From Gammaproteobacteria bacterium (GTDB lineage Bacteria > Pseudomonadota > Gammaproteobacteria > Steroidobacterales > JACDCP01), in the NCBI GenBank assembly GCA_050740235.1, contig JBOIDB010000072.1:972-64971 (forward strand): DNA of 64,000 nt, read 5' to 3'. Below, piece by piece: positions 8,538 to 60,091 of this stretch. The translations under genes were made by a program, and so were the position numbers. Within the stretch, counting starts at the first letter, position 1. Every line of letters starts with the position of its first letter. The notes beneath the pieces were generated by a model. That model saw only the letters and a program-made list of their open reading frames with translations. It made no database searches and was not told the origin of the DNA.

Positions 8538-9513
8538 GGCCGTAGCCCTGCAGAAAACCGCAGTGGCCGCCGAAGGTCGTGGTTTCGATGGTCAGACACT
8601 GCGGCGCCTTCAGCCGCCCCGCGTCCGCGAAAGGGATGATCGGATCGTCGATGGCGAGAATGACATGCGACGGCACCGACAGCTCGTCGAGCGCCCCGTC
8701 GACGATGCCGTAGCCTTTCAGATAGGCGGCAAGATCCGCAAACTCCGAATGGTGGCGCACCAGATAGTCCGTCATTTCCGTCAATGTCTTCAGCGCCAGC
8801 AGCTCGCGAAAGTCATAGATACCGGGATGACAGGACTGCTTGAGCTTGAGCGAGCGCTTCCACTTGCCGACGAAATGCAGCCGGTAGCCGAGCCAGCCGG
8901 ATTCGAGCGCCTCGAGCGTGTGCTCGGGATCGAGCACCGGGCAGACCGCGACTACGCGTTCGATGGCGAGATTCGCCTTGCGGGCTCGCGCGGCCACGCG
9001 AAGCGCGAAGTTTCCGCCAAGCGAGAAGCCGGCGAGATAAAGCCGATGCTGCGGAAGCCTGCGGGCGATTGCCTGCACGGCGCCGACGACTTCGTCGAGG
9101 CGGCAGGAATGGAAGACCTCGACGTTCAGGTGATGGCTTGCGCCGTGATCGCGAAGATTCAGCCGGAAGACGTCGAAACCGCGCGCATACAGATGCGCGG
9201 CCGCGGAAAGCTGGTAGGTCGAATCGGCGCTGCCCTCCCAGCCGTGAATGAGCACGACGATGCGAGGGGACATGCCCGACTTCGCGTCTGCGAAATCAGG
9301 CATGTCCCCTTTTGCCTGCGACGCTCCGTGCGAAGGCCCCGCGTAATAACCCTGCAAGCGCACGCCGGCGCCGCAATCGAGCACCAGGGGCCGCGAGGCT
9401 TCGAGGAGCTTGCGCGCTCGACGCATGACGAACGGGCGGCGCAGCCGCATGCTCGCGAGCACCGCCTGCACGTGCGGATTGCGCAGCGCGCGGTTGGGAA
9501 CGAATGGGCTCAA
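8476..9513 (-). CDS. Alpha/beta hydrolase, YheT/ABHD-type
   Basis: VVLIHGWEGSADS, nucleophile elbow GFSLGG, N-terminal F.P.R.L.NPH.Q. TTG start at 9513. The 3' end overlaps the convergent FGGY kinase gene by 62 bp. Confidence 0.8.
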   Translation of the reverse strand: MSPFVPNRALRNPHVQAVLASMRLRRPFVMRRARKLLEASRPLVLDCGAGVRLQGYYAGPSHGASQAKGDMPDFADAKSGMSPRIVVLIHGWEGSADSTYQLSAAAHLYARGFDVFRLNLRDHGASHHLNVEVFHSCRLDEVVGAVQAIARRLPQHRLYLAGFSLGGNFALRVAARARKANLAIERVVAVCPVLDPEHTLEALESGWLGYRLHFVGKWKRSLKLKQSCHPGIYDFRELLALKTLTEMTDYLVRHHSEFADLAAYLKGYGIVDGALDELSVPSHVILAIDDPIIPFADAGRLKAPQCLTIETTTFGGHCGFLQGYGLTSWIDARILDALTSESRSA

Positions 9514-9529: not shown

Positions 9530-9615
9530 GGAAAATCGGGGTCAGACCGAGATTTCGCGAATGACACCCAAAGAATTTCGTGGGCTGCGAAATCCCGGTC
9601 TGAGCCCGATTTTCC
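9530..9615. repeat. Family-A inverted-repeat element (copy A1)
   Basis: Left arm GGAAAATCGGGGTCAGACCGAGATTTCGC (9530-9558) matches the reverse complement of right arm 9587-9615 at 27/29 positions, with a ~28-nt spacer. The core AATCGGGGTCAGACCGRGATTT recurs at 49865-49952. Confidence 0.85.
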
Positions 9616-42731: not shown

Positions 42732-43706
42732 ATGAAACCCCAGCACATCGCCATCACCGGCGCGGCCGGTCAGATCGGCTATCAGCTCGCGTTCCGCATC
42801 GCCTCGGGGCAGCTGCTCGGCCCCGATCAGCCCGTCGTGCTGCATCTGCTCGAGATCCCGCAGGCGCTCGGCGCGCTCGAAGGCGTGGTCATGGAACTGC
42901 GCGACTGCGCATTCCTGACGCTGCACGACGTCGTAGCGACCGATAACCCCGACGTTGCGTTCGAGGATGTGGGCTTCGCGCTGCTGGTCGGCGCCAGGCC
43001 TCGCACCGCCGGCATGGAACGCAGCGATCTGCTGCTCGGCAACGCCAGGATCTTTTCCGTGCAGGGCCGCGCGCTCAACCAGCACGCGAATCCGGACGTC
43101 CGCGTGCTCGTGGTCGGCAATCCCGCCAATACGAATGCGCTCATCACGAGCGCGAATGCGCCCGACCTGGATCCACGCCAGATCACCGCCATGACGCGCC
43201 TCGATCACAACCGGGCGCTCGGGCAGCTCGCCGGGAAAACCGCCTCGCACGTCAGCGCGATCCGCCGCATGACGATCTGGGGCAACCATTCCGCCACGCA
43301 GTATCCGGACATCAGTCACGTCAGGGTCAACGGCCGGACCGCCAGAGACCTCGTCGACGAAAGCTGGGTGCGCGATACGTTCATACCGACCGTGCAACAG
43401 CGCGGCGCGGCCATCATCAAGGCGCGGGGTGCCTCATCCGCAGCCTCGGCCGCATCCGCCGCCATCGATCATGTGCGCGACTGGGTGCAAGGAACGTCGG
43501 ACGGCGATTGGGTCAGCATGGCCGTGCCGTCCGACGGCAGCTACGGTATCGACGAAGGCGTCGTCTACTCGTTTCCGGTCACCTGCCGCGACGGCGATTA
43601 CGAAATCGTTCCCGGCCTCGACATCGACGCGTTCAGCCGCGAGCGCATGGATGCCACCGAAAAGGAGCTGCGCGAAGAGCGCGAAGCGGTACGCGAGCTC
43701 CTCTGA
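42732..43706 (+). CDS. mdh: Malate dehydrogenase (LDH-like type 2 family)
   Basis: [30 protein letters not shown]...VLHLLEI..A...L.GV.MEL.DCAF, and the catalytic region [12 protein letters not shown]. Confidence 0.95.
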
Positions 43707-43724: not shown

Positions 43725-43797
43725 AAGGGGTTCCCGGTACCCTTTCTCAGTCGCTCCCCGATATGAGCTTGGTGAGAAAGGGTACCGGGAACCCCTT
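43725..43797 (+). repeat. Family-C hairpin, copy 1 (conserved loop, perfect 24-bp stem)
   Basis: Arms AAGGGGTTCCCGGTACCCTTTCTC (43725-43748) and its exact complement (43774-43797). Loop AGTCGCTCCCCGATATGAGCTTGGT (43749-43773). Starts 19 nt after the mdh stop. Confidence 0.9.
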
Positions 43798-43855
43798 GCC
43801 GGGCGTGATCACCTGCTGATCGTCACGTGGCGGTCGGCAAACGCTCACGCTGGCG

Positions 43856-43927
43856 GAGGAGATGCCTGTGTCCTTTTTCAGTCGCTCCCCGATATGAGCT
43901 TGGTGAAAAGGACACAGGCATCTCCTC
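43856..43927 (+). repeat. Family-C hairpin, copy 2 (same loop, unrelated perfect 22-bp stem)
   Basis: Arms GAGGAGATGCCTGTGTCCTTTT (43856-43877) and its exact complement (43906-43927). The loop (43878-43905) contains the identical core TCAGTCGCTCCCCGATATGAGCTTGGTGA. Confidence 0.9.
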
Positions 43928-43995
43928 GTTTGCATGCGCCTTTTCACCAGGCAAGTATCGGGGAGCGACTGCGAAAGGGTGCAGGGAACCCCTCG
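43924..43995 (-). repeat. Family-C hairpin, copy 3 (inverted, decayed stem)
   Basis: The reverse complement of 43944-43974 gives TCGCAGTCGCTCCCCGATACTTGCCTGGTGA, with the core 21/25 identical to copy 1. The right flank (43973-43995) is 20/23 identical to the copy-1 right arm. The two flanks pair at only ~14/22 positions. Confidence 0.8.
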
Positions 43996-44089
43996 TTCTT
44001 GAACGTTTCAGGTGCCGAAGCTGCGCTATAGTAGCCGCATCACGCATCTCGACGCCGGCGCCCGCCGCGCGGCCTAAAGCGAGGTAATC

Positions 44090-46627
44090 ATGGCGGAGAG
44101 TCTTTTCTGGCTGGCGCTTTTCCTCGGCGGCATCATCGCGCTCGCGTACCATCGCGTCGACTACAAGACCTCCACCATCGCCATCGGCATCGCGCTCGTC
44201 GCCTACACGATCTTCGGCGACGGCAACTTCTTCTGGCTGCTCCTGCTCTGGCTCGTCTTCGCCGGGCTGGCCGCGCTCAATTTCGAGGACCTGCGCCGCG
44301 ACCGTATCTCGCGCCCGCTGTTGCGCATGGCGCGCGAGCTGTTGCCGCCGATGTCACGCACCGAGCGCGAAGCGCTCGAAGCCGGCAGCGTCTGGTGGGA
44401 AGGCGAGCTGTTCGGGGGCCTGCCCGACTGGGACAAGCTCGTGTCGATGCCCGCGCCGAAGCTCAGCGAGGAGGAGCACGCCTTCCTCGACGGGCCTTGC
44501 GAGGAGCTGTGCCGCATGCTCGACGACTGGAAGATCACGCACGAGCAGGGCGACATGAGCCCGGAGGTCTGGCGGTTCATCAAGGACCGCGGATTCTTCG
44601 CGATGATCATCCCGAAACGCTACGGCGGACTCGAGTTTTCCGCGCTCGCGCATTCGGCCGTCCTCGCCAAGGTGGCCAGCCGCAGCGCGACCGCCGCCTC
44701 GACCATCGCCGTGCCGAACTCGCTGGGGCCGGCAGAGCTGCTGCTCCATTACGGCACGGAGGCGCAGAAAGAGCGGTATCTGCCGGGGCTCGCCAATGGC
44801 ACGGAAGTGCCCTGCTTCGCGCTGACCGGCCCTCGCGCGGGCTCGGATGCCGCATCCATTCCCGATACCGGCATCGTGTGCAAGGGCGAGCTCGACGGCG
44901 AGGAGATCGTCGGCATACGGCTGAACTGGGACAAGCGCTACATCACGCTCGCGCCGATCGCCACCGTACTCGGCCTCGCGTTCAAGCTGTACGACCCCGA
45001 ACACCTGATCGGCGATCAGGACGACCTCGGCATCACCGCGGCGCTGATTCCGACCGACACGCCCGGCGTCACGATCGGCCGGCGGCACTATCCGATCAAC
45101 ATCCCGTTCCAGAACGGGCCGACGCAGGGCAAGGACGTCTTCATGCCGCTCGACTGCATCATCGGCGGTGTCGAGATGGCCGGCGAGGGCTGGCGCATGC
45201 TGATGGAGCAGCTCGCGGTCGGCCGCTGCATCTCCCTGCCGTCGAACGCGACGGGCGGCGCGAAGGCCGCCACCCGGGCGAGCGGCGCCTATGCACGCAT
45301 CCGCCGCCAGTTCGACCTGCCGATCGCCGAGTTCGAAGGTGTCGGCGAAGCGCTCGCGCGCATGGCCGGCCGCACCTACACCATGAATGCCGGGCGCACG
45401 GTGACAGCCGGCGCCGTGGATCAGGGCGAAAAGCCGGCCGTGCCCTCTGCGATCCTCAAGTATCACACGACGGAAATGGGCCGCCTGGTCGCCAACGACG
45501 CCATGGATGTGCACGGCGGCAAGGGCATCTGTCTCGGGCCGAACAACTATCTCGCGCGCAGCTACGAATCCGTGCCGATCGCCATCACCGTCGAGGGCGC
45601 CAACATTCTGTCGCGCAGCCTCATCATCTTCGGCCAGGGGGCCATCCGCTGTCATCCGTACGTGCTGCGCGAAATGCATGCGGCGCAGGACGAGGACCAC
45701 GAGCGCGGGCTCGACGAGTTCGATCGCGTGGTGTTCGACCACGTCGGCAATGCGATCGGCAACGCGGCACGCTCGCTCGTGCTCGCCCTGACGAATGCCA
45801 GGTTCACCGGCGTGCCCGTGCACGGCGCGGTGCGGCGTTACTACCAGCACATCAACCGCTTCAGCGCGTCCTTCGCCCTGGCCGCCGACGTGGCCATGCT
45901 GACCCTCGGCGGCAGCCTCAAGAAGCGCGAGCTGCTGTCCGCCCGGCTTGGCGACGTGCTGAGCGCCATGTATCTCGCCTCGATGGTCCTCAAGCATTAC
46001 GAAAACGAAGGCCGGCCCGCGGAGGATCTGCCGCTGGTGGAATGGGCCTGCCGCGATCTGCTCTACGACGCGCAGGAAAAGCTGCACAGCTTTCTGCGCA
46101 ATTTCCCGAACGGACTCGTCGCGACGGTGCTGCGCCTGCTCGTGTTCCCCCGCGGCCTGACGTATTCCGCGCCGGGTGATGCCCTGGGCCGCGCGGTCGT
46201 CGAGCTGGTCACGCATCCGACCACGGCGCGCGAACGGCTCTGCGCCGGTACGTACAACGCCCGTGCGCATGACAACCCGCTCGGCCTGCTCGATGAGGCG
46301 CTCGAGCTGGCCCTCGAGGCCGAGCCGCTCCTGAAGCGCCTGCACGCAGCCGTTCGCGCGGGCAAGCTCAGCGCGCCGGACCTGCCCCGCGAAATCGACG
46401 CTGCCGAAAAGCAGTCGATTCTGAGTCCGGAGGAAGCCAACAAGCTGCGCGAGCTCGACCGCAAAGTCATGCGCATCATCGCCGTCGACGACTTCCCGCC
46501 GGGCGCATTCGGCGTGAAAGCCGCCCAGGCCACAAAAGCGCGCAAGGAAAGCCGGCCGCCGAAGGCGGAGCGGCAAACGGCGACTGCGGAACAGACCGAA
46601 CAGCCGGCCCGCGAAGAACGAATCTAG
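44090..46627 (+). CDS. fadE: Large (FadE-type) acyl-CoA dehydrogenase
   Basis: 845 aa. N-terminal membrane-anchor-like helices, then ACAD domains (...FFAMIIPKRYGGLEFS..., ...GEGWRMLMEQLAVGR..., ...VHGGKG...). Size and layout match E. coli-type FadE. Confidence 0.9.
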   Translation: MAESLFWLALFLGGIIALAYHRVDYKTSTIAIGIALVAYTIFGDGNFFWLLLLWLVFAGLAALNFEDLRRDRISRPLLRMARELLPPMSRTEREALEAGSVWWEGELFGGLPDWDKLVSMPAPKLSEEEHAFLDGPCEELCRMLDDWKITHEQGDMSPEVWRFIKDRGFFAMIIPKRYGGLEFSALAHSAVLAKVASRSATAASTIAVPNSLGPAELLLHYGTEAQKERYLPGLANGTEVPCFALTGPRAGSDAASIPDTGIVCKGELDGEEIVGIRLNWDKRYITLAPIATVLGLAFKLYDPEHLIGDQDDLGITAALIPTDTPGVTIGRRHYPINIPFQNGPTQGKDVFMPLDCIIGGVEMAGEGWRMLMEQLAVGRCISLPSNATGGAKAATRASGAYARIRRQFDLPIAEFEGVGEALARMAGRTYTMNAGRTVTAGAVDQGEKPAVPSAILKYHTTEMGRLVANDAMDVHGGKGICLGPNNYLARSYESVPIAITVEGANILSRSLIIFGQGAIRCHPYVLREMHAAQDEDHERGLDEFDRVVFDHVGNAIGNAARSLVLALTNARFTGVPVHGAVRRYYQHINRFSASFALAADVAMLTLGGSLKKRELLSARLGDVLSAMYLASMVLKHYENEGRPAEDLPLVEWACRDLLYDAQEKLHSFLRNFPNGLVATVLRLLVFPRGLTYSAPGDALGRAVVELVTHPTTARERLCAGTYNARAHDNPLGLLDEALELALEAEPLLKRLHAAVRAGKLSAPDLPREIDAAEKQSILSPEEANKLRELDRKVMRIIAVDDFPPGAFGVKAAQATKARKESRPPKAERQTATAEQTEQPAREERI

Positions 46628-48551: not shown

Positions 48552-48670
48552 GGGGAACGGGGACATTCCTGATTCTCCGGGGGAAATGGGGACATCCCTG
48601 ATTTCCTTGGAAAGGTTCCGGAAATCAGAAAACACTGCATTCTTCGGAAATCAGGAATGTCCCCATTTCC
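48552..48670. repeat. Family-B repeat cluster B1 (two forward units, one partial unit, one reverse unit)
   Basis: Forward units are 48552-48578 (GGGGAACGGGGACATTCCTGATTCTCC) and 48579-48606 (GGGGGAAATGGGGACATCCCTGATTTCC). A partial unit, CCGGAAATCAG, lies at 48618-48628. The reverse unit CGGAAATCAGGAATGTCCCCATTTCC lies at 48645-48670. Consensus GGAAATGGGGACATTCCTGATTTYC. Confidence 0.9.
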
Positions 48671-49826
48671 TCCACGCGCGATCCTGCATGTCGACATGGA
48701 CGCGTTCTACGCGTCCGTCGAGCAGCGCGATGAGCCGTCGCTGCGCGGCAAGCCGGTGCTGGTCGGGGGCGCCGGGCCGCGAGGCGTCGTCGCCGCGGCG
48801 AGCTACGAGTCGCGCGTCTACGGCATCCGATCGGCGATGCCCATGCGCGAAGCGCTGACACGCTGCCCGCACGCGGTCTGCGTGCCGCCACGCTTCGATA
48901 GCTACCGGCGGGAATCGGCGTGCATCTTCGCGATCTTTCACGGCTTCTCGCCCCTGGTAGAGTCGCTCTCGCTCGACGAGGCGTTCATCGACGTCACGGC
49001 GAGTCGCTCGTTGTTCGGAGATGCGGCGGCGATCGGCCGGGCGATCAAGGACAGAATTCGCGATGCGACCCGTCTGAGCGCCTCCGTCGGAATCGGTCCC
49101 AACAAGCTCGTTGCCAAAATTGCGTCGGATCTCGACAAGCCGGACGGCCTGCGCCTCGTCGATGACGACAGCTTGCAGTCGACGCTGGATCCGTTGCCGG
49201 CGCGCGTCCTGCCCGGGGTCGGCCCGCGAGCCGCCGGGCATCTCCGCCGCATCGGGCTGACGACCCTCGGCGAGCTGCGCCGCGCTCCGGCCTCGCGCCT
49301 GCAGCCGATCTTCGGCCGTTACAGCGAGCAGATACGCCAGCGCGCTGCGGGGGTCGACGACCGGCCGGTAGTTCCGGACGCCGCGCGCAAGTCGATCAGC
49401 GCCGAGGAAACCTTCGATGCCGACCTGCCGCAGGGTCCCGAGCTGTCGCGCGAGCTGGCGCGGCTCGCCGATCGCACCGCTGCACGTTTGCGCGCGAGCG
49501 GCCTCGTCGCGGGCTGCGTCTGCGTCAAGATCCGCCGCCCGGATTTCGCCACGTTCACGCGGCGGCGGAGCCTCCATCCTCCGGCCAGCGGATCGCGCCT
49601 CATTCACGGCGCGGCCCGCGAGTTGCTCGGGCAATGGTTCGCTGCCGCGCCAGACGCGAAGCTGAGGCTGCTCGGAGTCGGGGTCGAGGATCTCGAGCCT
49701 GCCGGCCAGGCCGATCTGCTGGCCGCTCTCGGCACGGCCGGGAATGACGCGATAGACGATGCCGTCGACCGGATCCGCGCCCGTTTCGGCGAGGCCGCCC
49801 TCGGCAGCGCCCGCACGCTGCGGTGA
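48657..49826 (+). CDS. dinB: DNA polymerase IV (Y-family)
   Basis: ILHVDMDAFYASVEQRDEPSLRGKPVLVGG...GVVAAASYESRVYGIRSAMP. The only canonical in-frame start upstream of the catalytic HVDMD motif is ATG 48657, which lies inside repeat unit B1c. Confidence 0.9.
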   Translation: MSPFPPRAILHVDMDAFYASVEQRDEPSLRGKPVLVGGAGPRGVVAAASYESRVYGIRSAMPMREALTRCPHAVCVPPRFDSYRRESACIFAIFHGFSPLVESLSLDEAFIDVTASRSLFGDAAAIGRAIKDRIRDATRLSASVGIGPNKLVAKIASDLDKPDGLRLVDDDSLQSTLDPLPARVLPGVGPRAAGHLRRIGLTTLGELRRAPASRLQPIFGRYSEQIRQRAAGVDDRPVVPDAARKSISAEETFDADLPQGPELSRELARLADRTAARLRASGLVAGCVCVKIRRPDFATFTRRRSLHPPASGSRLIHGAARELLGQWFAAAPDAKLRLLGVGVEDLEPAGQADLLAALGTAGNDAIDDAVDRIRARFGEAALGSARTLR

Positions 49827-49864: not shown

Positions 49865-49952
49865 GAGAATCGGGGTCAGACCGGATTTTTCCGAACGGCA
49901 TTCTACGGAGACCAGACGCAGATGGAGAAAATCCGGTCTGACCGCGGTTCTT
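49865..49952. repeat. Family-A inverted-repeat element (copy A2)
   Basis: GAGAATCGGGGTCAGACCGGATTTTTCC (49865-49892) faces GGAGAAAATCCGGTCTGACCGCGGTTCTT (49924-49952). It shares the core AATCGGGGTCAGACCGRGATTT with copy A1 and lies between dinB and exeA. Confidence 0.85.
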
Positions 49953-58884: not shown

Positions 58885-58888
58885 TTCA

Positions 58889-58978
58889 GGGGAAATGGGG
58901 ACATTCCTGATTTTCTGAGCGAAACCAGCACCTCGGCTGTCGAACGATCCCGAAAATCAGGAATGTCCCCAATTTCCC
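58889..58978. repeat. Family-B inverted-repeat element B2
   Basis: GGGGAAATGGGGACATTCCTGATTTTC (58889-58915) faces GAAAATCAGGAATGTCCCCAATTTCCC (58952-58978) across a 36-nt spacer. It starts 5 nt after the FlhC-like stop codon. Confidence 0.9.
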
Positions 58979-59874
58979 GGAAAGCCCCGCCCCTGCCGAA
59001 CGTATTTTCCGGCCTGCACGTCGACCGCGTCGCGCACCGGCGACGGGATTCGGCGTGGATCGAGCGCGCGCTGGTCTCCTCACGCACGCGCTTCGTGCCG
59101 GTACAGGACAAGCTGAGCCTCGTAAAGAACGGCGAGCCGCCTCGCCCGGTCCTTCTCGATCACGATCAGATTGCGCGAGCCGGCCTGCAGGCGGGCTCGC
59201 CGATCTATCTCGGCCGATTCGGCGGGCACGACTGTTTTGCCTGCGCTCTGACCGCCGACGCAGCACCCGCAGCCGACCTCGGTGGCGAGTTTCAGGATCT
59301 GCATCGGGTCGGCGCGCTGCTCGAAACCGCCGACGCCACGCTGCTCGCTTATGCGCGCGCCATGGTGCTTTGGCACCGGAATCACCGGCACTGCGGGCGC
59401 TGCGGCGCGCCGATCGCCATCACCGAAGCCGGCCACGTGCTGGTCTGCTCGGATGAGCAATGCGGCACACAGCAGTTTCCGCGCCTCGACCCTGCGATCA
59501 TCGTGCTGGTCGCGGACGAGGAGCGCTGCCTGCTCGGACGCCAGGCCGGCTGGCCGGCCGGCCGCTACTCGACGATCGCCGGCTTCGTCGAGCCCGGTGA
59601 AAGCCTCGAGGATGCGGTCACGCGTGAAGTTCACGAAGAGACCGGCGTCGAAGTGCGCGACGTGCAATATCATTCATCGCAACCGTGGCCTTTTCCGGCA
59701 TCGTTGATGCTCGGCTTCTCGGCGCGTCCTGCCAGCACGGCCATCGAGCTTCACGACCGCGAGCTCGAGGACGCGCGCTGGTTCACCCGCGAGGAAATCG
59801 CCGCGGGCCGGGCGGGCTTCCCGCCCAAAGTCTCGATCTCGTTTCGCCTGGTCGAGGATTGGCTCTCGTCATAA
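58963..59874 (+). CDS. nudC: NAD(+) diphosphatase / NADH pyrophosphatase (Nudix)
   Basis: Zinc ribbon HCGRCGAPIAITEAGHVLVCSDEQCGTQQFPR. Nudix box GFVEPGESLEDAVTREVHEETGV, then SQPWPFP. ATG 58963 lies inside repeat unit B2b. Confidence 0.9.
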   Translation: MSPISRKAPPLPNVFSGLHVDRVAHRRRDSAWIERALVSSRTRFVPVQDKLSLVKNGEPPRPVLLDHDQIARAGLQAGSPIYLGRFGGHDCFACALTADAAPAADLGGEFQDLHRVGALLETADATLLAYARAMVLWHRNHRHCGRCGAPIAITEAGHVLVCSDEQCGTQQFPRLDPAIIVLVADEERCLLGRQAGWPAGRYSTIAGFVEPGESLEDAVTREVHEETGVEVRDVQYHSSQPWPFPASLMLGFSARPASTAIELHDRELEDARWFTREEIAAGRAGFPPKVSISFRLVEDWLSS

Positions 59875-59914
59875 GTATTGCCGGTGCGGCGGTCGCGAGG
59901 CCGTATTGTCCTAC

Positions 59915-59955
59915 TTCCCTCGAGTCGCTCCCCGATACTCGCTTGGTCGAGGGAG
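59915..59955 (+). repeat. Family-C hairpin, copy 4 (short stem)
   Basis: Core AGTCGCTCCCCGATACTCGCTTGGT (59923-59947) is 22/25 identical to copy 1. It is flanked by TTCCCTCG / CGAGGGAG (8 bp including one G-T pair). Confidence 0.8.
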
Positions 59956-59985
59956 TGGGGGCAATCCGCGACGCCTCGGTGGCAG

Positions 59986-60054
59986 CCGCTTATCCTCATC
60001 TGTTCCGACCGAGCCGGTATCGGGCGGCGAATCGGGACAGATGAGAATAAGCGG
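59986..60054 (-). repeat. Family-C hairpin, copy 5 (inverted, diverged loop, 18-bp stem)
   Basis: Arms CCGCTTATCCTCATCTGT (59986-60003) and ACAGATGAGAATAAGCGG (60037-60054) pair at 17/18 positions. The loop's reverse complement, ...ATTCGCCGCCCGATACCGGCTCGGT..., is ~19/25 identical to the family core. Confidence 0.7.
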
Positions 60055-60091
60055 CCTGCGGCGGATGCAAAAAACTGAATGGAGGGAGGCC

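Follow-up and report, generated by a model that had tools for sequence, protein, structure and literature searches.

The 64,000-nucleotide stretch of DNA analysed here (hereafter the window), which belongs to an uncultured gammaproteobacterial MAG, carries closely spaced hairpins between the genes for malate dehydrogenase (mdh) and an acyl-CoA dehydrogenase (fadE), which hold nearly the same loop on stems that differ in sequence. This locus raises the question of whether such hairpins belong to a described family, which of their parts is constrained, and how they came to occupy their sites. The mdh-fadE site is flanked by the malate dehydrogenase gene at 42732-43706, whose homologues contain Ldh_1_N/C domains, and by the gene of an 845-aa acyl-CoA dehydrogenase starting at 44090, whose homologues contain Acyl-CoA_dh and ACDH_C domains.

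Five hairpins at two sites of the window

The initial annotation of this spacer had described three elements sharing a core, two exact and one inverted, and our analysis confirmed all three. The core AGTCGCTCCCCGATATGAGCTTGGT is found exactly at 43749-43773 and 43880-43904 and occurs a third time inverted, with four changes (21/25 identical); no match to it was obtained in 100 dinucleotide-preserving shuffles. The reverse complement of this core, with the loop ACCAAGCGAGUAUCGGGGAGCGACU, is referred to as the F strand, which we define as the strand with the loop ACCAAGCGAGTATCGGGGAGCGACT. A covariance-model scan of the 64 kb recovered exactly five copies, three at 43725-43993 and two at 59900-60055:

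43725-43797, minus strand (F strand): copy 1, intact hairpin, 80.2 bits with the covariance model
43725-43749 and 43773-43797: arms of the copy 1 stem, a perfect 25 bp around a 23-nt loop
43750-43772, minus strand: apical module of copy 1, with the internal loop CCAA/GAC, a 4-bp helix and the octaloop AUAUCGGG
43856-43927, minus strand: copy 2, intact hairpin, 69.8 bits, z -8.7
43856-43877 and 43906-43927: arms of copy 2, a perfect 22 bp with two further pairs past a 1-nt bulge
43935-43993, plus strand (F strand): copy 3, decayed, 33.3 bits, z -0.65
59900-59970, minus strand: copy 4, decayed, 55.1 bits, z -0.39
59985-60055, plus strand: copy 5, intact hairpin, 70.1 bits, z -7.2

Copy 1 begins 19 nt past the mdh stop codon and folds with a dG of -58.4 kcal/mol (z -9.9 versus shuffles). 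Its stem had been annotated as perfect and 24 bp long, which is correct as to the pairing and one pair short as to the length: the outermost bases of the core pair with each other, giving 25 bp and a loop of 23 nt. The inner helix of this copy is the GCUC/GAGC variant, and its octaloop is AUAUCGGG, compared with GUAUCGGG in the main type. Copy 2 carries, as annotated, the identical core on a perfect 22-bp stem, and its loop is the same as that of copy 1. The two stems had been considered unrelated, a view that our data contradict: 15 of 22 arm positions match in register with the changes compensated, a similarity that ranks among the highest 2% of background arm pairs and exceeds that to any of 102 foreign arms. 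Judged by this alignment, the arms of copies 1 and 2 look like diverged homologues in which every change has been compensated.

Copy 3 is inverted and has lost its stem, in agreement with the first description. Its core lies at 43946-43970, its loop reads ACCAGGCAAGTATCGGGGAGCGACT, its outer (3') arm at 43970-43993 shares 88% identity with a copy-1 arm, and its 5' arm is truncated, with about 10 nt left. Copies 2 and 3 together form an rcF..F doublet, as do copies 4 and 5. Copy 4 has a main-type loop (core at 59923-59947) and a decayed outer stem, pairing being left in the 10 loop-proximal bp only. Copy 5 has a 24-bp stem, 92% paired including one G.U on the F strand, and the loop CCGAGCCGGTATCGGGCGGCGAA, whose inner helix GCCG/CGGC represents a double compensatory change relative to the main type. 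Scans of both window sites found neither a promoter nor a terminator; an intrinsic terminator (G+C-rich hairpin plus T tract) is absent from both, and the element flanks examined contain no T runs.

All the mdh-fadE hairpins sit upstream of a motif at 44017-44042, GAAGCTGCG(C/T)TATAGTAGCCGCA, which precedes fadE in conserved form both in the window and in the relatives closest to it (L113 and L114); upstream of fadE in L115 and L116 only the GTTATAGT part is retained. This motif is a candidate promoter of fadE, TATAGT being its possible -10 box. Two other hairpin families in the window, with the arms GGGGAAATGGGGACATYCCTGATTTYC and AATCGGGGTCAGACCGRGATTT, form a contrast to the loop-conserved family, since their arms are conserved and their centres variable (4-39 nt); they are found at 48579-48673, 58885-58982 and 9265-9310, and also at 9535-9610 and 49866-49951.

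A constant folded tip on a stem constrained only to pair

Scanning a collection of one genome per species with the pattern AGTCGCTCCCCGATAYNNGCYYGGT revealed at least 111 loci with the core in Proteobacteria. Carriers among the matches listed include Luteimonas, Thermomonas, Lysobacter, Arenimonas, Burkholderiaceae and Alcanivoracaceae, as well as Chromatiaceae, Steroidobacteraceae, Halioglobus and one Rhodospirillaceae MAG. The same loop is present in several orders and is not lineage-specific, and this spread contradicts the alternative, named in the initial annotation, of nothing but a local segmental duplication. The search of the core beyond the window, which that annotation had proposed together with a tabulation of the flanks, also gave a clear answer regarding pairing: among the matches listed, the core is nearly always flanked by self-complementary arms of 22-28 bp. 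The 131 elements analysed have a median ungapped stem of 24 bp with 93.5% Watson-Crick pairs, compared with a median of 0 and a maximum of 19 at random positions in the same loci, and 104 distinct arms are on average 37% identical to each other.

The whole element is about 70-80 nt long, with a 23-nt tip that is almost invariant. In a gap-free alignment of 70 sequences, 23 of the 24 stem pairs covary, a score reached in none of 500 shuffles. These results uphold the earlier proposal that the family is organised in the opposite way to REP and attC elements, with a conserved centre on a free stem. The dominant core is AGTCGCTCCCCGATACTCGCTTGGT, and the five free positions of the pattern AGTCGCTCCCCGATAYNNGCYYGGT are occupied nearly always by the same base among the matches listed; as most loci were ascertained via an intact loop, part of the apparent loop conservation stems from the sampling itself, and the evidence independent of this ascertainment comes from these free positions, from the partner copies in doublets, whose loops differ by 0-4 changes, from the locus L115 and from the pairing of the arms.

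The strand that folds can be read from the mismatches in the stem. On the F strand (ACCAAGCGAG...), G.U outnumbers A.C by 47 to 14 across 59 independent arm clusters (p = 3e-5), the raw counts being 86 and 10; split by context, this wobble asymmetry gave counts too small to use. For copy 1 the functional strand is probably the minus strand, and the strand in which the core was originally written is probably not the functional one.

The tip itself is a structured module. The first and last bases of the loop pair with each other, and the module reads 5'-A-CCAA-GCNN-GUAUCGGG-N'N'GC-GAC-U-3', in which a 4x3 internal loop (CCAA/GAC) leads into a helix of 4 bp capped by the octaloop GUAUCGGG. This inner helix is composed of G6 C7 N8 N9 and N18 N19 G20 C21. 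Main-type elements have GA/GA at N8N9/N18N19, a tandem sheared G.A that is possible on the F strand only; in the window, Watson-Crick pairs take its place (UC/GA for copies 1 and 2, CG/CG for copy 5). The inner hairpin GCTC/GAGC pointed out in the initial annotation is accordingly present in copies 1 and 2 and does not extend to the family, whose dominant type has the tandem G.A. When metagenomes were scanned with position 8 forced to be non-G and positions 18-19 left free, all 22 arm-paired matches were compensatory (18 CG..CG and 4 TG..CA), and the lone armless match was non-compensatory. This covariation indicates that the tip of the loop is a folded module and not a linear site. The element thus folds as a single strand with a defined functional strand; its structured tip is constrained in sequence, and its stem is constrained only to pair.

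In the alignment of all elements (A1), the 5' arm is G-rich and the 3' arm C-rich on both DNA strands. G-C exceeds C-G at most stem positions of this alignment, for instance 45 versus 12 at column 12, and a weak arm consensus, ..GGG..C...TCA, adjoins the loop.

Database searches were consistent with the initial view that the core lies outside the named RNA and repeat families. Rfam 15, scanned with the window and main-type copies under gathering and E-value thresholds, gave no family match; only generic long-hairpin (miRNA precursor) models appeared, on both strands and far below threshold. Viral contigs contained no exact core match, plasmid and phage databases returned only partial matches at chance level, and 5,426 E. 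coli genomes contained no match. No paper with the sequence was retrieved by literature searches with both strands as DNA and RNA, and concept searches led to REP/RAYT work only. The loop was no more complementary or identical to E. coli rRNAs (16S, 23S and 5S) and tRNAs than shuffled loops were. Readings of the loop as a K-turn, a GNRA receptor, SRP domain IV, boxA, an IHF or dif site or a small-ribozyme loop were considered by eye, without a fit.

A search for a partner encoded near the elements was likewise negative. All-against-all clustering of ORFs at the at least 111 loci revealed no recurring neighbour protein family, only orthologous contexts, and regular-expression searches of 1.06 Mb around about 150 copies found no HUH/Y1-like ORF (HUH...Y motif, RAYT-like). 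At the foot of the hairpin, within a 12-nt window in 55 independent elements, GTAG occurred 0 times, GTGG twice and CGTC six times; no 4-mer was enriched and no conserved motif was present.

Genomic organisation and turnover

Copies of the hairpin are present in some and absent from other orthologous spacers and occur in both orientations relative to genes. Doublets follow one polarity, the reverse-complement hairpin first and the F hairpin second on either DNA strand: 16 distinct cases are rcF..F, two are F..rcF and one has both hairpins in the same orientation, and both doublets of the window fit the prevailing form. Singletons show no orientation bias relative to co-directional flanking genes (13 sense, 12 antisense). 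Nor is there a bias relative to GC skew (42 versus 49), although a lagging-strand, IS200/IS605-like mechanism acting on single-stranded DNA would predict a bias in replication orientation.

The repeated unit differs between genomes. In the MAG KLAP199 the repeated unit is the hairpin of about 80 nt alone, arms included; these hairpin-only copies have no flanking target-site duplication and sit among ordinary GTAG-type REPs. In the MAG MFD05684 the hairpin is internal cargo of a MITE of about 235 bp with its own terminal inverted repeats, and in Luteimonas two hairpins with different stems make up a unit of about 300 bp that is tandemly duplicated in one locus. The genes lying between two copies are leuB and those for a pyrophosphatase and UvrA, and include no transposases.

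Several further arrangements were noted. The MITE of about 235 bp has the terminal inverted repeats TGTACCCCGCCAGAAA.../...TTTGACGGGGTACA with CTAG at both ends, and at least 11 near-identical copies of it occur in the one MAG MFD05684 (L007, L016, L035, L045, L063, L066, L072, L086, L093, L096 and L101), with another at L070. In Luteimonas salinisoli a 324-bp unit upstream of an EttA-like gene (L006:1501-2135) is duplicated in tandem with 98% identity and contains two oppositely oriented hairpins, an arrangement similar to a BIME cluster. GTAG-type REPs (e.g., TGTAGGAGCGGCTTCAGCCGCGAT and GTCGGGGCTTGCGCCCCTCCCACAG) adjoin loop-conserved hairpins at L005, L011, L017, L083 and L090, and the two kinds of repeat form common intergenic mosaics. 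A complete hairpin lies in frame, with the F strand sense, in the linker of a double-UvrA ORF of a Burkholderiales MAG (L039:2017-2087), where it translates as ...AGPAGPFDQASIGERLERPGRPG...; the linkers of the homologues are hypervariable and very different in length, and a clean insertion boundary could not be read in them. At L094:1610-1802 (the same pair as L060:7551-7744) a doublet lies exactly between two same-frame ORFs of 297 and 449 aa that together resemble one YgiQ-type radical SAM protein, and from this juxtaposition the YgiQ-like gene looks split, or disrupted by the doublet.

Orthologous spacers reveal how the two parts of the element evolve. The hslV-hslU spacer of six Thermomonas-like genomes retains a loop with an identity of 1.0 on arms with an identity of 0.68-0.70; the arms diverge faster than the flanking genes, whose third codon positions are 0.80-0.84 identical, and are nevertheless paired at 22/22 positions in every copy. 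Similar sets of orthologs are found upstream of mpl and downstream of purF, and the element has persisted for long at some loci. The mdh-fadE spacer is empty in three relatives (MDH identity 85%, 85% and 80%), and in a fourth (L115, 79% MDH identity), which was reached via the protein and not via the loop, it contains three copies on other stems. The initial annotation had proposed that spacers of relatives be compared for empty hairpins; none of the three empty spacers holds a corresponding core-less hairpin. In the purF-DUF455 spacer the loop is sense in four genomes and antisense in two, with the loop intact and the arms similar.

Among the purF-DUF455 loci, L044 and L049 have the loop in the opposite direction to L041, L047, L064, L074 and L081, and the loop-proximal arm ..TGCGTTTCA is common to both orientations. 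Such a pattern points either to repeated insertion or to a loop that has flipped in place between its arms.

Known hairpin elements and competing explanations

Described REPs have stems of 5-20 bp, loops of 2-20 nt and a GTAG/GTGG or CGTC foot tag, are species-specific and flank a RAYT gene (PMC3733652, PMC6006769). The present family resembles REP, BIME and REPIN elements in being composed of short, multicopy and mostly extragenic hairpins, with occasional copies in genes, in which one strand matters, and also in its inverted dimers of preferred polarity, its alternating clusters and its persistence at orthologous sites. It differs from them in its stem of 22-28 bp of free sequence, with a 23-nt structured tip conserved instead, in the absence of a foot tag, in a tip common to several orders and in the absence of a RAYT from the 1.06 Mb around the copies. 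A REP or REPIN is a short imperfect palindrome with a stem sequence conserved within a species; here arm identity between copies averages 37% next to a nearly invariant loop. The suggestion of a lineage-specific REP class, made in the initial annotation, is retained as far as REP-like behaviour is concerned and abandoned with regard to lineage specificity and the features that define REPs.

Integron attC sites also act as folded single-strand hairpins that are recognised largely by structure and are highly variable in sequence. In attC, however, it is the stem base with its R/L boxes and extrahelical bases that stays constant and the centre that varies. Our hairpins show the reverse: no R''/R' boxes (RYYYAAC / GTTRRRY) were found in an outer stem without conserved bases, the centre is conserved, and a cassette array or integrase context is lacking. 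MITEs do not provide a match either, since hairpin-only copies have no flanking duplication and arms are not conserved between families. Elements of the IS200/IS605 type (PATE) have subterminal hairpins and a guide tetranucleotide; the 55 elements showed no conserved foot motif. Rickettsia palindromic elements (RPE) and Neisseria Correia elements are likewise dispersed palindromic repeats, the former able to sit in frame in ORFs and the latter giving long RNA hairpins when transcribed. Their arms or terminal inverted repeats are conserved and their sequences lineage-restricted, and neither is known to combine free stems with an invariant structured loop.

A conserved loop on a variable stem, with one strand being read, is also found in the origin hairpins of rolling-circle and CRESS-DNA replicons, in which the loop contains the nick site of the HUH Rep protein, the stem varies between replicons and the hairpin is read as single-stranded DNA. 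The octaloop region GAGTATCG loosely recalls their nonanucleotide NAGTATTAC, a weak resemblance in sequence. Such origins occur once per replicon beside a rep gene and have loops of 9-13 nt on short stems, whereas the hairpins studied here are present in many chromosomal copies with no rep gene.

The hairpins constitute a widespread family of dispersed, strand-specific elements for which no description was found in the literature or databases searched. We regard it as an even call that they are loop-defined, REP-like single-strand hairpin elements recognised through the tip by a putative factor. The element would fold as a single strand, either as single-stranded DNA or as RNA, and a putative trans-acting factor would recognise it through the apical module, the stem being required only as a helix of about two turns. 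It would spread in the manner of REPs and REPINs as a non-autonomous unit, found singly, in inverted doublets with a constant polarity or carried within larger repeats, and would be retained after insertion by selection or by correction of one arm against the other. The fold and its strand, the conserved tip, the compensated turnover of the stem, the presence/absence polymorphism and the REP-like organisation are observed; the reading of the loop by a protein, the movement as single-stranded nucleic acid and any benefit to the host are what we infer. Of the explanations offered in the initial annotation, the display of a binding loop on an arbitrary stem is the best supported, on the strength of the 23/24 covarying pairs, the strand-specific mismatches and the covarying helix within the loop. 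Since the loop is identical across orders, as it is not in species-specific REPs, the partner may instead be a conserved host factor. A bolder version of this reading, which we put forward tentatively and consider rather unlikely, is a new class of mobile or maintained element in which the apical module is the sole sequence determinant, a dedicated enzyme reads it on a single strand, the stem of about 24 bp serves as a ruler that would bring both ends of the element together at the foot of the hairpin, and the arms are corrected by templating on each other. A related idea is that the loop may be able to flip in place, with its own arms on either side.

Functional RNAs typically tolerate G.U pairs, contain tandem G.A and have compensated stems, and the hairpins could by these features be a cis-acting structured RNA module of host transcripts, i.e., an intercistronic or 3'-UTR hairpin with a protein-binding tip that would govern how the transcript is processed or how stable it is, for instance by letting RNase III cut the two-turn duplex or by protecting from exonucleases. 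Conserved sense copies in short operon spacers (hslV-hslU, upstream of mpl, purF-DUF455), which leave the next Shine-Dalgarno sequence free, and the clustering of stem lengths at 22-28 bp point in the same direction. We nevertheless judge this explanation unlikely, considering that orientation relative to co-directional genes is random (13 sense and 12 antisense singletons), that the loop in the purF spacer is antisense yet intact in two genomes, that there is no association with promoters or terminators and no Rfam match, and that the distribution among genera is patchy. The occurrence of both orientations at one locus and the independence of orientation from transcription imply that a role in host mRNA is not the whole story; copies lying sense in operon spacers may well influence the transcripts that contain them. 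Mobilisation by a RAYT (Y1 HUH), which would make the family ordinary REPs or REPINs with an unusually long stem and loop, appears quite doubtful. The extragenic, multicopy distribution with occasional copies inside genes, the inverted dimers with one dominant polarity, the alternating clusters and the GTAG-type REPs adjoining some copies would all be expected of it; it is opposed by the lack of GTAG (and only two GTGG) at the foot of 55 elements, by stems of 22-28 bp instead of 5-20 bp, by an invariant 23-nt loop that is conserved rather than the stem or foot and is shared by several orders rather than being species-specific, and by the absence of a RAYT-like ORF from the 1.06 Mb around 150 copies.

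Two further explanations fare worse. A duplex-DNA site for a regulator or nucleoid protein, with incidental inverted-repeat flanks, would agree with the constant 25-bp centre and with the lack of orientation bias relative to genes or GC skew, but it leaves the compensated arms of free sequence, the covarying inner helix and the one-strand excess of G.U over A.C unaccounted for, and the centre has no dyad symmetry; we consider it very improbable. Least probable of all, and hardly credible, is a miniature 25-nt element inserting into the loops of pre-existing hairpins, as the initial annotation had envisaged; a constant centre between arms that differ between most copies would fit it. Within a genome, loop and arms are duplicated as one, and in KLAP199 the whole hairpin of about 80 nt is the repeated unit; copies 1, 2 and 3 have related arms, and those of orthologs diverge gradually; other hairpins with 22-28 bp stems are very rare in the same loci; the empty mdh-fadE spacers hold no core-less hairpin, and no orthologous site with the same stem and a short unrelated loop was seen.

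Known dispersed hairpin repeats, such as REP, BIME, REPIN, attC and the ends of MITEs, are recognised via their stems, feet or ends. An invariant tip on a free stem implies instead a partner that reads the folded loop, be it a new enzyme or a repurposed conserved host machine. Loop-conserved elements would escape the REP finders now in use, which look for a GTAG tag and expect a short loop. The stems, which change faster than third codon positions and yet stay paired, are useful for studies of compensatory evolution and palindrome correction. Thermomonas fusca and several Luteimonas are cultured carriers in which transcription, binding partners and mobility are testable; with the partner identified, this hairpin family may turn out to be a new class.
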